IMG/VR virus record: IMGVR_UViG_2690316346_000011
Strand: one strand, 5' to 3'
DNA: 6,871 nucleotides
Source of the DNA: a virus
Lineage: Duplodnaviria > Heunggongvirae > Uroviricota > Caudoviricetes
The notes under the pieces were generated by a model that made no database searches, was not told the DNA's origin, and saw nothing but the letters and a program-made list of their open reading frames with translations. The translations under genes were made by a program, and so were the position numbers. This document shows positions 2,760 through 6,871 of this stretch, in pieces (the first letter of the stretch is position 1; each line of letters opens with the position of its first letter).

Positions 2760-2801
2760 TGGATTTGCCCCTATATTTCCAGACATCTGTTATCACTTAA
2801 C
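2760..2801. repeat. IS2 terminal inverted repeat (right end of the element, window-left)
   Basis: Imperfect inverted match to 4050-4090. Confidence 0.8.
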
Positions 2802-3676
2802 CCATTACAAGCCCGCTGCCGCAGATATTCCCGTGGCGAGCGATAACCCAGCGCACTATGCGGATGCCATTCGTTATAATGCTCGAACGCCTCTGCAAGG
2901 TTCTTTGCTGCCGTTAACCCGTCTGGTTTGGGCATGATACTGATGTAGTCACGCTTTATCGTTTTCACGAAGCTCTCTGCTATTCCGTTACTCTCCGGAC
3001 TCCGCACCGCCGTGTTCTTCGGTTCAAGTCCCAACATCCGGGCGAACTGGCGTGTTTCATTAGCCCGGTAGCATGAACCATTATCCGTCAGCCACTCCAC
3101 TGGAGACGACGGAAGATCGTTGCCGAAGCGGCGTTCCACCGCTCCCAGCATGACGTCCTGTACTGTTTCACTGTTGAAGCCGCCGGTAGTCACCGCCCAG
3201 TGCAGTGCCTCACGATCACAGCAGTCCAGCGCGAACGTGACACGCAGTCTCTCTCCGTTATCACAGCAGAACTCGAACCCGTCAGAGCACCATCGCTGAT
3301 TGCTTTCTTTCACGGCCACTCTGCCTGTATGTGCCCGTTTCGATGGCGGTACAGCAGGTTTTCGCTCAAGCAACAGCGCATTCTGGCGCATGATCCGGTA
3401 AACACGTTTGGCATTGATCGCAGGCATACCATCAAGTTCTGCCTGTCTGCGAAGCAGCGCCCATACCCGACGATAACCATACGTGGGCAGCTCTCCGATA
3501 ACATGGTGTATACGGAGAAGCACATCCGTATCATCAGTGTGACGACTGCGGCGGCCATCCATCCAGTCATCGGTTCGTCTGAGAATGACGTGCAACTGCG
3601 CACGCGACACCCGGAGACAACGGCTGACTAAGCTTACTCCCCATCCCCGGGCAATAAGGGCGCGTGCGCTATCCAC
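2771..3676 (-). CDS. insD: IS2 InsD (OrfB transposase, 301 aa, GTG start)
   Basis: ORF 2771..3676, translation ...[38 protein letters not shown]...[12 protein letters not shown] typical of IS2 / IS3-family OrfB; overlaps insC in the -1 frame. Confidence 0.9.
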
Positions 3677-3999
3677 TTTTTTGCCCGTCCATATTCAACG
3701 GCTTCTTTGAGGAGTTCATTTTCCATCGTTTTCTTGCCGAGCAGGCGCTGGAGTTCTTTAATCTGCTTCATGGCGGCAGCAAGTTCAGAGGCAGGAACAA
3801 CCTGTTCTCCGGCGGCGACAGCAGTAAGACTTCCTTCCTGGTATTGCTTACGCCAGAGAAATAACTGGCTGGCTGCTACACCATGTTGCCGGGCAACGAG
3901 GGAGACCGTCATCCCCGGTTCAAAGCTCTGCTGAACAATTGCGATCTTTTCCTGTGTGGTACGCCGTCTGCGTTTCTCCGGCCCTAAGACATCAATCAT
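3634..3999 (-). CDS. insC: IS2 InsC (OrfA, 121 aa)
   Basis: Translation from ATG at 3999: [56 protein letters not shown]...; the ORF-track 5' extension to 4044 is rejected. Confidence 0.9.
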
Positions 4000-4049
4000 C
4001 TGTACTCCAATGACTAGTCTAAAAACTAGTATTAAGACTATCACTTATT

Positions 4050-4090
4050 TAAGTGATACTGGTTGTCTGGAGATTCAGGGGGCCAGTCTA
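4050..4090. repeat. IS2 terminal inverted repeat (left end of the element, window-right)
   Basis: TAAGTGATACTGGTTGTCTGGAGATTCAGGGGGCCAGTCTA, imperfect inverted match to 2760-2801. Confidence 0.8.
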
Positions 4091-4092
4091 GT

Positions 4093-4722
4093 GACCGACT
4101 GGCACGTCTTCGTAAGGAGCTAAGGCTACGCTGTAAGCAGAAACGCAAGTTCAGAGCGACTACGAACTCGAACCACAATCTGCCAGTTGCGCCAAATCTG
4201 CTGAACCAGACGTTCGCTCCTACAGCACCAAATCAGGTCTGGGTGGCGGACCTGACGTATGTTGCCACACAGGAGGGATGGTTGTACCTCGCTGGCATCA
4301 AAGATGTTTATACGTGCGAAATTGTCGGCTACGCCATGGGAGAGCGCATGACAAAAGAGCTGACAGGTAAAGCCCTGTTTATGGCGCTCAGGAGCCAGCG
4401 CCCACCTGCCGGGCTAATCCACCACTCTGATCGAGGTTCACAGTACTGCGCATACGATTACCGGGTCATACAGGAGCAGTCTGGTCTGAAAACATCAATG
4501 TCGCGTAAAGGTAACTGTTACGACAACGCTCCGATGGAAAGCTTCTGGGGAACGCTGAAAAATGAGAGCCTGAGCCACTATCGTTTTAATAACCGGGATG
4601 AAGCCATCTCAGTAATACGGGAATACATTGAGATTTTCTACAATCGTCAGCGTCGTCACTCTCGTCTGGGGAATATCTCCCCGGCAGCCTTCAGGGAAAA
4701 ATATCATCAGATGGCTGCTTAA
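4093..4722 (+). pseudogene. IS3-family transposase OrfB, N-terminally truncated
   Basis: Frame translation DRLARLRKELRLRCKQKRKF...VWVADLTYVATQEGWLYLAG...HSDRGSQYCAYDY...CYDNAPMESFWGTLKNE... has the DDE-region signatures of IS3-family OrfB. The ORF-track start at 4063 lies inside IS2 and is artefactual. Confidence 0.85.
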
Positions 4723-4765
4723 AAAAAGAACAAATGGTAGTGTCCGCTATTGCCAGTACACCTCA
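4715..4765. repeat. 51-bp terminal segment of the IS600-like element, repeated inverted at 6821-6871
   Basis: 4715-4765 is the exact reverse complement of 6821-6871 by direct comparison. Confidence 0.9.
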
Positions 4766-5072
4766 ATTGCTCTGCGGCTTCGCTCAGAGCTGGCGTATGT
4801 TCCCGGCCTACTGATTCACACAGGTAATCAACGAAACCGGACACCAGTTTTCGTTCGCGAGGCGTGATCGCCCCACCGACCGGAGTCCAGTAATCGAATC
4901 CCAGTTGCAGGAGTTTGAAAAAACGCTTGTGGAATGCGTAGTTACACACACGCTTAAAGTCTGCGTGTATCCACTCACCTATTTTGATTTGATGCAGAAA
5001 ATCGCAACTCTCCGGCGTCGCCGGGAGAAGTAATCCGGAAGAGGTTTGTTTGACCAGTTGTATATGTGCCAT
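4766..5072 (-). pseudogene. 5' fragment (about 102 codons) of a second DUF1367-like gene, truncated by the IS600-like end
   Basis: From ATG at 5072 (MAHIQLVKQTSS...) the sequence is co-linear with 1272-1578 with about 8 mismatches in about 307 nt by eye, then runs into IS sequence at 4765. The ORF-track N-terminal extension to 5114 is rejected. Confidence 0.8.
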
Positions 5073-5110
5073 CGGCTTTCTCCGGTGGCACGGTGTTACA
5101 CAGCAGGAGT

Positions 5111-5398: not shown

Positions 5399-5516
5399 CT
5401 TCAGAATCCTTCCAGATAAATAGCTCTCCCCTGTTCGGGGTCCATCCCTCTTCTCCCTGCGCGCTACTTAAGTGAGTCGATTCTATCTGCGAAGGTGCGC
5501 GAATCAAATTCACCGG

Positions 5517-5647: not shown

Positions 5648-5803
5648 TTACTTCCTGGATTCGTAGTCTACGAAGACAGCGACCTCCGTCTGGCCGGTTC
5701 GGATTCGTACCTCACAGAGGTCTTTCCTCGTTACCAGTGCCGTCACTATGACGGTTAAACAGATGACGATCAGGGCGATTAACATCGCCTTTTGCTGCTT
5801 CAT
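5648..5803 (-). CDS. hok: Hok/Gef-family type I toxin (51 aa)
   Basis: Translation MKQQKAMLIALIVICLTVIVTALVTRKDLCEVRIRTGQTEVAVFVDYESRK: a single hydrophobic helix then the conserved RKDLCEVRIRTGQTEVA motif, close to HokD/Gef as recalled. ATG at 5803 has AAGGAG 9 nt upstream; the ORF-track in-frame extension to 5860 is rejected as the start. Confidence 0.9.
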   Translation of the reverse strand: MKQQKAMLIALIVICLTVIVTALVTRKDLCEVRIRTGQTEVAVFVDYESRK

Positions 5804-5979
5804 AGCCTGCTTCTCCTTGCCTTTCGGCATGTAAGAGGCTAACCTACATGTGCAAAGCATGAAATTGGCCTCAGATTAATGTTAAGCGTCTTGCCGGACG
5901 CGTAATGTTAACTGGGGCTTTTCTCTATCTGCCTTTTGGTGTTCATGCCTGAAGCAGATAGCCTCAAGCACCCGCAGTC

Positions 5980-6009
5980 ATTCTACTTACCTCGCCAATA
6001 TGAAATCAA
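5980..6009 (-). promoter_or_regulatory. Candidate sigma70 promoter for the hok transcript
   Basis: Minus strand -35 TTGATT (plus 6009-6004), 18-bp spacer, -10 TAGAAT (plus 5985-5980); predicted start near 5973, giving a leader of about 170 nt, in the range known for hok mRNAs. Motif match only. Confidence 0.3.
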
Positions 6010-6030
6010 TCAGAAAGGTGCCCCATAAAA

Positions 6031-6717
6031 TCACTCCTTCTCTTCTTTACCGTAGTGGAGTTGACCAATTTTGATAAGAGGGCGTCCCTGAGATTTGCGG
6101 TGTAGATTGGTATCGCGCAGAGAATACACACAGCCACAATATTCCTGCTGATAGAATTTTTCGCGCTTGCTGATTTCAATCATACGGGACGAGCCGCCCT
6201 GCTTGCGCCAGTTATAATCCCAGTACACCATGCCCGGATAATGCGCGACGGCTCGCCGCCCACAGTCGTTAACCTGCTGCATATTTTTCCAGCGTGAAAT
6301 GCCCAGTGAACTGCTGATCACACTGAAACCATTTTCAGCGGCGTACAGCGCTGTCCGCTCAAAACGCATGTCAAAACACATGGTGCAACGGATCCCTCGT
6401 TCGGGCTCCCATTCCATTCCTTTGGCTCGTTCAAACCAGTTGTCTGTGTCGTAATCAGCATCAATAAACGGCACGCCGTGTTGTTCAGCAAAGCGAATAT
6501 TCTCATCCTTACGAATTAAATACTCTTTCTGAGGATGAATGTTCGGGTTGTAGAAAAAGATGGTGTAGTCGATTCCCGAGGCCTGAAGCGCCTCCATCAC
6601 CTCACCGGAACATGGAGCACAGCAAGAGTGCAGTAGTAGTTTGTTTGCCCCGTTTGGGAGCTCCAATTTGGGCCGTTTGAAATCAGCAACTGTCATAAAT
6701 ATGTTTATTGGGGTCAT
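6031..6717 (-). CDS. queH: QueH-like protein (DUF208 epoxyqueuosine reductase family, 228 aa)
   Basis: Translation carries the family signatures as I recall them: [11 protein letters not shown] near the N-terminus, [19 protein letters not shown] and YCGCVYS (Cys ligand pattern of the QueH Fe-S site). Neither candidate ATG (6717, 6696) has a good Shine-Dalgarno, so the start is uncertain. Confidence 0.75.
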
Positions 6718-6820
6718 AAAAATATCAAAGAGTGTAGCATTAGAACGGGGCTATCGGAAACAGATGTGTGACTGCTCCCCGCCCTTTCGGGTGGTCTCCT
6801 GATGATTTGAGGGTGCAGAA

Positions 6821-6871
6821 TGAGGTGTACTGGCAATAGCGGACACTACCATTTGTTCTTTTTTTAAGCAG
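6821..6871 (-). mobile_element. Terminus of a second IS600-like (IS3-family) copy, inverted; the element continues beyond the window
   Basis: TGAGGTGTACTGGCAATAGCGGACACTACC... begins with the TG terminus and is the exact reverse complement of 4715-4765, including the orfB stop region. Confidence 0.8.

Follow-up and report, generated by a model that had tools for sequence, protein, structure and literature searches.

This study concerns a 6,871-nucleotide stretch of DNA, hereafter the window, from the IMG/VR virus record IMGVR_UViG_2690316346_000011 (Caudoviricetes), in which queH, a gene for a protein of the QueH family, lies on the minus strand of a prophage remnant together with a hok toxin gene and several insertion sequences (ISs) (Table 1). 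QueH and QueG reduce epoxyqueuosine to queuosine (oQ to Q) at position 34 of transfer RNA (tRNA)-Asn, -Asp, -His, and -Tyr, the former by iron-sulfur chemistry and the latter by means of cobalamin (vitamin B12) (PMC4646009; PMC6063277; PMC9508795). A preliminary description of the locus, made from the letters without database searches, had placed a QueH-like gene directly upstream of hok in a prophage module; this arrangement holds, with hok immediately downstream of queH on the same strand.

Table 1. Features of the window; positions are counted from its first letter.
Feature	Position	Strand	Description
queH coding sequence	6031..6696	minus	221 amino acids plus stop, with M8 as start
Longest queH open reading frame (ORF)	6031..6717	minus	228 amino acids, from the upstream ATG at 6717
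Conserved 50-nucleotide block upstream of queH	6718..6767	minus	Probable native promoter and short 5' untranslated region
Variable spacer	6768..6820	minus	Shared only with the FDAARGOS_944-type prophage
hok toxin gene	5648..5803	minus	51 amino acids; Pfam HOK_GEF, E 9.8e-23; phrog_251, E 1.3e-32
Longer in-frame hok ORF, mok-like	5648..5860	minus	70 amino acids; MokW in some phage records
hok mRNA leader	5798..5973	minus	Rfam RF01794 (sok), full model 1–157
hok promoter-like site	6009->5980	minus	TTGATT-18-TAGAAT, from promoter scan
Intrinsic terminator after hok	5572->5527	minus	Hairpin of -24.7 kcal/mol followed by a U-run
ORF of 95 amino acids	5111–5398	minus	Function unknown; phrog_340, no Pfam match
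IS1, complete	1914–2681
IS2, complete	~2760–4090	minus
IS600, 3' part	4091–4765
IS600 end, running off the window	6821–6871	plus	100% inverted repeat of 4715–4765

Family Membership and Start Codon of queH

The 228-codon ORF matches the Pfam family PF02677 (QueH, DUF208) with an E-value of 1.9e-65 and a score of 220.6 bits, the cut-off being 23.5 bits, and covers profile positions 1–174 of 175, i.e., the full length of the family; this is the profile search that the preliminary description had proposed as a check, and its outcome favors the original assignment. As a single sequence, the product also matches the Thermotoga maritima QueH chains 7lc5, 9dco, and 9d86 (E ~5e-22), and a profile built from 45 sequences reaches T. 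maritima QueH with an E-value of 1e-49. Membership of the window ORF in the QueH family is real and far beyond chance. No NCBIfam model matches the product, though RefSeq names the identical protein “epoxyqueuosine reductase QueH”.

The preliminary description had given the protein 228 residues while regarding its start codon as uncertain. An ORF of that length exists, but four observations favor a later start at M8. The RefSeq start of the identical protein is M8 (the ATG at 6696), and the N-termini of homologs from sixteen genera fall at or just after the same position. The seven codons upstream of M8 carry three amino acid changes in Escherichia phage HannyBb and one in E. coli 042, compared with five and one, respectively, in the other 221 codons. 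Finally, a conserved promoter element (described below) keeps a constant spacing from M8 and not from M1. On this evidence, queH most likely starts at M8, giving a protein of 221 amino acids, and the 228-codon ORF over-extends. Residue numbers of the queH product below refer to the 221-amino-acid protein.

The same description had noted an N-terminal extension of about 20 residues relative to bacterial QueH. With the M8 start, 19 residues still precede the Pfam domain, but this segment is shared by proteobacterial QueH proteins, and its residues R15, L20, and P21 are invariant across Enterobacterales, Pseudomonas, Salinicola, and Lysobacter. Proteobacterial QueH proteins likewise share a conserved basic tail of about 25 residues at the C-terminus. 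As judged from these alignments, the N-terminal segment and the tail are features of the proteobacterial QueH subfamily rather than phage-specific additions.

Active Site and Predicted Fold

The six cysteines C9, C10, C87, C90, C169, and C171 of T. maritima QueH (numbers read from the pairwise alignment) correspond to C25, C26, C104, C107, C187, and C189 of the queH product, so that the comparison of active-site residues called for at the outset finds every one of them aligned and present. The cysteine set is complete, comprising CCxPC in the N-terminal part, CxxC in the middle, and CGC toward the C-terminus. A 45-sequence alignment reaching down to 35% identity contains 15 invariant columns (C25, C26, C29, N52, R62, E99, R103, C104, C107, R111, K137, Q184, C187, G188, and C189), all of which the window protein holds by construction, since it is the reference row of that alignment.

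The column of T. maritima Asp13 is occupied by Cys29 in the queH product. Among 88 aligned sequences, 71 have Cys in this column and 11 have a gap; Asp is confined to T. maritima. The alignment indicates that CCAPC is the norm of the QueH family (71 of about 76 sequences), that Cys29 represents no loss, and that the T. maritima Asp is the exception. The crystallized enzyme is accordingly atypical at this position, and conclusions based on its D13N mutant may not carry over directly to the proteobacterial enzymes; the mutant and ligand states of T. maritima QueH are known here from the titles of PDB entries (C9S, 9D86; D13N, 9DCO; guanosine monophosphate, 7LC7; and queuosine, 9DEU).

An AlphaFold2 model of the product, built on the 45-sequence alignment, has a mean predicted local distance difference test score of 95 and a predicted template modeling (TM) score of 0.91. 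By Foldseek, the model superimposes on 7lc5 with a TM score of 0.93 and a root-mean-square deviation (rmsd) of 1.2 Å over 179 columns. The top five PDB matches are all T. maritima QueH entries (TM score normalized to the target, 0.90–0.93; rmsd, 1.2–1.9 Å), and the next matches, TtuA and LarE, fall below a TM score of 0.4. The DUF208/QueH cysteine signature recognized in the preliminary description is therefore in agreement with the profile match, the cysteine motif, the predicted fold, and the genomic context.

A Candidate Promoter Upstream of queH

The 50-nucleotide block directly ahead of the longest ORF is kept in all prophage contexts that were aligned, and the sequence beyond it differs. 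Upstream similarity among the prophages ends at 6767 (50 nucleotides before the M1 ATG) or, for prophages of the FDAARGOS_944 type, at 6820. Within the block, an extended -10-like element, TGCTACACT, occupies 6739->6731, 43 nucleotides ahead of the M8 ATG. The motif TGCTACA[AC]T recurs 43–44 nucleotides before the start of the chromosomal queH genes of Scandinavium, Kluyvera, Enterobacter quasihormaechei, and Symbiopectobacterium, as well as in an E. albertii prophage, and this motif is all that can be aligned between the upstream flanks of those chromosomal genes and the prophage flanks. In Erwinia, the equivalent position reads GTGCTACACT, and in one Enterobacter it reads CGCTACAAT; Acerihabitans, Martelella, and an Enterobacteriaceae metagenome-assembled genome have looser versions (TGCTATATT and TGCTAAAAT) at -37 to -43. 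Across 79 species-representative loci, TGnTAnnnT was found between -50 and -20 in 17, against about 2.4 expected by chance. The conserved element bears the signature of an extended -10 promoter, and because it stands at a fixed distance from the start amid unrelated upstream sequences, queH probably has a promoter of its own.

Two other candidate elements were discarded. A weak GC hairpin in the variable spacer (6794->6779; -8.6 kcal/mol) is no better than its shuffles (z -1.0), for which reason a terminator-bounded left edge of the cassette was dropped; folding of the E. coli 042-type upstream segment, which did not span the whole hairpin, gave no stable structure. A riboswitch or other known RNA upstream of queH was likewise rejected, as an Rfam search at E <= 1 returned only the hok/sok leader and two sub-threshold matches at 35–122.

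Prophage Setting and State of the Window Copy

In the prophages of E. coli FDAARGOS_944, whose queH is 100% identical to that of the window, and of E. coli 042, a single strand carries a cro-like gene, ydaT, ydaU, ydaV, (DUF1627), DUF977, queH, and hokD, followed by DUF1367, DUF1364 (ybcO), DUF1133 (Q-like), tRNAs, holin, and lysozyme. The position of queH is between the replication genes and the Q antiterminator gene of a Rac/Qin-like lambdoid prophage. The equivalent slot in the Qin prophage of E. coli K-12 reads relB-relE-hokD-rem-ydfU-ydfT, which confirms the order that the preliminary description had given, with relB-relE standing upstream of hokD where the window has queH. In the Rac prophage of K-12, ydaV-ydaW runs directly into rzpR'-trkG, while the intervening segment (DUF1627, DUF977, queH, hokD, DUF1367, DUF1364, a Q-like gene, tRNAs, and lysis genes) is present in the Rac-like prophage of 042. 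Since the latter still carries it, comparison of the sequences indicates that K-12 Rac lost the queH segment by deletion. Related prophages thus differ by presence and absence at one position, as would be looked for in a moron, a self-contained cargo gene (relBE in Qin, K-12 Rac without queH, and 042 with it). As to a promoter and terminator of its own, queH has a conserved extended -10 motif with a poor -35 upstream, and a strong terminator stands only after hok.

The window is a prophage remnant broken by ISs, in which IS600 separates queH from the early operon of the phage. The similarity shared with uninterrupted prophages ends at 6820, which is the last base before the upstream IS600 end and also the position at which the preliminary description had closed its feature. 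This IS600 end is inverted relative to the copy at 4091–4765 and lies 104 nucleotides before the M1 ATG, and its transposase would be read on the minus strand toward queH. In uninterrupted relatives, the sequence corresponding to window 6820->4766 continues straight into 1595->1. Despite the breakage, queH is intact and shows 100% identity to the copy of a prophage that itself looks intact. The abundance of ISs points to a Shigella-like host.

Several further observations concern the architecture of this remnant. In intact relatives, the piece with queH is continuous with the piece bearing the Q gene; the window therefore combines two halves, which an IS nest separates and which possibly come from two related prophages. 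The DUF1367 gene is duplicated in its 5' part, within a repeat of 324 bp (1272–1595 and 4766–5089, 96% identity). With the DUF1367'-orf95-hok-queH fragment between them, the two IS600 ends point inward, a layout resembling a composite transposon. At 35–122 on the minus strand, the two sub-threshold Rfam matches are to Trp_leader (23 bits) and isrK (20 bits); the GC hairpin and U-run that give rise to them, just downstream of the Q-like gene, are probably a late-operon terminator (tR'-like) and a target of the Q antiterminator.

The location of queH raises the possibility that the gene acts mainly during lytic growth, being transcribed in the delayed-early (pR) operon after induction and raising the level of Q in tRNA for phage late genes. 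By position the gene does belong to the early-right operon, on the same strand, after the replication genes and ahead of the Q antiterminator gene, and it is present in the isolated phage HannyBb. A 2026 preprint further reports induction of queG and a shift from oQ to Q in phage-infected Shewanella; since infection has these effects there, the oQ-to-Q step can, by analogy, be limiting and infection-responsive. On the other hand, the promoter motif held in common with chromosomal homologs suggests expression independent of induction, the window copy has stayed intact although IS600 cut it off from the operon, and modifying the tRNA pool within one lytic cycle would be slow. We regard a mainly lytic role as rather unlikely, while noting that it is compatible with the position of the gene and not exclusive of activity in the lysogen.

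A different proposal, put forward in the preliminary description as one of two speculative functions, is that the protein acts on 7-deazaguanine-type nucleic-acid modifications, either on 7-deazaguanine derivatives in DNA or in countering a deazaguanine-based defence. Phages do use the preQ0 pathway for DNA modification (PMC6884629), and QueC-family proteins are described in defence systems by one source (PMC13639016). The surroundings of queH speak against this function: the annotation shows no dpdA, no tgt, and no preQ0-synthesis gene such as queC, queD, queE, or folE up to 9 kb away from queH in two E. coli prophages and up to 6 kb away in HannyBb, and a PADLOC search for defence systems gave no matches. 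Moreover, the protein is 80–92% identical to the products of chromosomal queH genes in non-phage contexts. We know of no epoxide-bearing deazaguanine in DNA. Such a function is very improbable, and of the two that had been suggested, action on oQ in tRNA is the one well supported by the sequence comparisons.

The hok/sok Partner

The gene downstream of queH, annotated as hokD by RefSeq, encodes a Hok peptide and is accompanied by a structured, Sok-targeted leader, the two parts expected of a hok/sok unit. The Rfam match to RF01794 (5973->5798) scores 117 bits against a gathering score of 59 (E 5.9e-27). As this match lies on the hok-sense strand, it models the hok leader that is complementary to, and targeted by, the Sok antisense RNA. 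The preliminary description had credited hok with its own promoter; a promoter-like site is indeed found, beginning 22 nucleotides past the queH stop codon, with its -10 ending 7 nucleotides before the leader match. Terminator and promoter scans of the queH-hok region found no terminator between the two genes, and along the minus strand the first terminator that follows queH is the hairpin after hok (z -4.1; none of 200 shuffles reached its stability). Further downstream, the ORF of 95 amino acids has a promoter-like site of its own (5480–5507, minus strand; TTGATT-16-TAGAAT), the hexamers of which are identical to those of the hok site.

Distribution and Linkage

A survey of 5,426 complete E. 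coli genomes found queH in 995 (~18%), almost always as one chromosomal copy, and queG in all 5,426, so that each of the 995 carriers has both genes. The preliminary description had taken E. coli K-12 to use QueG and had suggested a survey of hosts for queG; K-12 does have queG, as does every E. coli carrier of queH. QueH usually replaces QueG where QueG is missing, a pattern that is typical but not defining of the family, and this is not the situation in E. coli.

The gene's identity was already available in databases, whereas no discussion of its occurrence in phages appears to exist: a search of the open literature combining QueH, DUF208, or epoxyqueuosine reductase with prophage, phage, or lambdoid returned nothing on this gene. 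The PHROGs family phrog_3217 is labelled “unknown function”, which the QueH identity corrects. Its 188-position profile begins at residue 34, past the CCAPC motif, and for this reason many phage and prophage gene calls for queH are probably truncated at the N-terminus. Among the phages of the GenBank set, HannyBb is the only isolate that convincingly carries queH, its protein being 97.7% identical at the amino acid level and annotated as hypothetical; the other QueH matches, which were unannotated metagenomic fragments or records of 280–380 kb that are labelled as phage but look like bacterial DNA or unresolved prophage regions, were not counted.

IMG/VR holds at least 189 viral contigs with queH. 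All 80 of the loci kept for comparison show the upstream block, queH, a 57-nucleotide spacer, and hok/sok in equal spacing, while the genes further downstream of hok/sok fall into several different sets. A near-complete queH occurs in 985 E. coli genomes, in at least 741 of which it is contiguous with hok. At 6254–6810 of the HannyBb locus, about 380 bp of extra sequence with small ORFs stands between queH and hok, so the cassette is not always contiguous.

Relatives, Origin, and Selection

Outside E. coli and E. albertii, the nearest queH genes are those of Scandinavium (92% identity), Kluyvera (91%), and Enterobacter (89–90%), the loci of which lack hok and show no similarity to the prophage genes that were tested. 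Those of Erwinia, Providencia, and Photorhabdus are 80–86% identical and lie among core genes such as purL, glrK, and tmcA, and those of Sphingomonas, Pseudomonas, and Stenotrophomonas are still 75–82% identical to the E. coli prophage copies. Because the QueH family is unusually conserved, percent identity alone does not allow the date of capture to be read from these comparisons. Proteobacterial QueH is strongly conserved, yet its chromosomal neighborhood differs between genera. No ancestral chromosomal queH locus could be named, the flanks in Erwinia, Providencia, and Photorhabdus recurring only within their own genera.

Between the window queH and the alleles of 042 and HannyBb, nonsynonymous divergence (dN) is 0.002–0.012 and synonymous divergence (dS) 0.09–0.22, giving dN/dS ratios of 0.02–0.05. 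The prophage queH protein is under strong purifying selection. This observation bears directly on whether queH might have no role and persist by linkage alone, carried along by the hok/sok addiction module and a successful prophage family. The unvarying adjacency of queH and hok/sok in the 80 IMG/VR loci would fit such an account, as would the presence of queG in every host, carriage in only 18% of genomes, and the lack of a known phenotype for queH. Ratios this low at a dS of up to 0.22, however, signify sustained purifying selection; the catalytic residues are all intact, the native promoter motif has been retained, and in the window the gene remains whole though ISs have shredded its surroundings. 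Persistence by linkage alone is accordingly improbable.

Proposed Function and Its Appraisal

Taken together, the profile match, the cysteine set, the predicted fold, the similarity to chromosomal queH, the purifying selection, and the genomic context argue for a functional QueH acting on tRNA, to which we assign a probability of roughly 0.8; the product would most likely be a working second oQ-to-Q reductase. In the scheme that we propose, the gene would have come from an Enterobacteriaceae chromosome and brought its own extended -10 promoter with it. It would then have become part of a cargo cassette (promoter, queH, hok promoter, hok/sok, and terminator) lying between the replication genes and the Q antiterminator gene in Rac/Qin-like lambdoid prophages of E. 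coli, Shigella-like strains, and E. albertii. In the lysogen, expression of queH from its own promoter would supply a second route from oQ to Q. As a member of its family, the product would be expected to bind a [4Fe-4S] cluster and an adjacent iron. The Shewanella preprint cited above indicates that this step can matter during phage infection. In the window, the severed cassette would rely on this promoter or on read-out from IS600, since IS600 cuts it from the phage early operon.

A reason for the retention of queH could lie in the cofactor of the host enzyme. QueH does not need cobalamin, and E. coli makes no corrinoids and must import them. The prophage enzyme might thus complete Q without B12 when cobalamin or the BtuB receptor is missing. 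QueG is given as cobalamin-dependent in PMC4646009, which cites Frey et al. (1988), and is listed among the cobamide enzymes of E. coli (PMC11841063). Such a B12 bypass is a possible explanation for retention, though one that falls well short of even odds and is weaker than the assignment of a functional QueH. Still more tentatively, the cassette may amount to a lysogenic conversion of tRNA modification, in which a self-promoted prophage queH would free the last step of Q synthesis in E. coli and Shigella from the need for cobalamin.

Several points weigh against the assignment of a working enzyme with its own promoter, and against the benefit suggested for it. There is no Shine-Dalgarno sequence at either candidate start of queH (M1 or M8). 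A simple sigma-70 scan did not report a queH promoter, the site at TGCTACACT being missed because its -35 is poor. The function of the product is drawn wholly from homology, and the B12 argument rests on what is published about QueG and on general knowledge of corrinoid import. Finally, queH duplicates a reaction that host QueG already performs, and its benefit is hence unproven.

If lysogenic conversion of this kind does take place, lysogens would have Q in place of oQ under B12 scarcity or after loss of BtuB, and the hok/sok partner would hold the cassette in place. About one in six complete E. coli genomes carries on a prophage the gene for a second, chemically different enzyme for a step that the host performs with a B12-dependent one. 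Should the prophage copy shift the oQ/Q balance, it would show in a simple way how a phage can rewire tRNA modification in its host, and it would also offer a ready-made natural system in which to look for functional differences between oQ and Q.

Comparison With Known Systems

The closest structural reference for the window protein is T. maritima QueH (7LC5), with which it shares the Pfam family, the fold, and the six cysteines. The two are only about 31% identical, and the window protein differs in having Cys29 in place of Asp13 and in adding the 19-residue N-terminal segment and the basic C-terminal tail of about 25 residues. QueG catalyzes the same conversion of oQ to Q in tRNA as QueH but has an unrelated fold and cofactor. 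Among chromosomal genes, the queH copies of Enterobacterales are near-orthologous to the prophage gene in sequence, length, and start, and those of the closest genera (Scandinavium, Kluyvera, Enterobacter, and Symbiopectobacterium), as well as of Erwinia, have the extended -10 motif upstream as prophage queH does. The chromosomal copies are found amid non-phage, mostly housekeeping or metabolic genes, whereas the window copy is prophage cargo.

With respect to its slot, queH resembles relB-relE in K-12 Qin, which likewise stands immediately upstream of hokD and before the Q antiterminator gene; there, a type II toxin-antitoxin pair fills the place of queH. The downstream unit is a standard member of the group formed by hok/sok of plasmid R1 and hokW/sokW of the Shiga toxin (Stx) phage 933W, with a Hok peptide, an RF01794 leader, a promoter-like site, and a terminator. 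Unlike in those systems, read-through transcripts from queH would enter the hok leader of the window, since no terminator separates the two genes.

The 7-deazaguanine DNA-modification clusters of phages, in which DpdA is accompanied by FolE, QueD, QueE, and QueC (Hutinet et al., 2019; PMC6884629), resemble the present case in placing genes of the queuosine pathway on phages, but they make preQ0-type bases for DNA. The window instead encodes a lone QueH, which serves a late, tRNA-specific step and lacks the partner genes of the DpdA clusters. The same 2019 survey reported no homologs of QueA, QueG, or QueH in the viruses that it analyzed; if the function proposed here is correct, the queH product would be the first enzyme from the tRNA-specific part of this pathway to be found on a phage.

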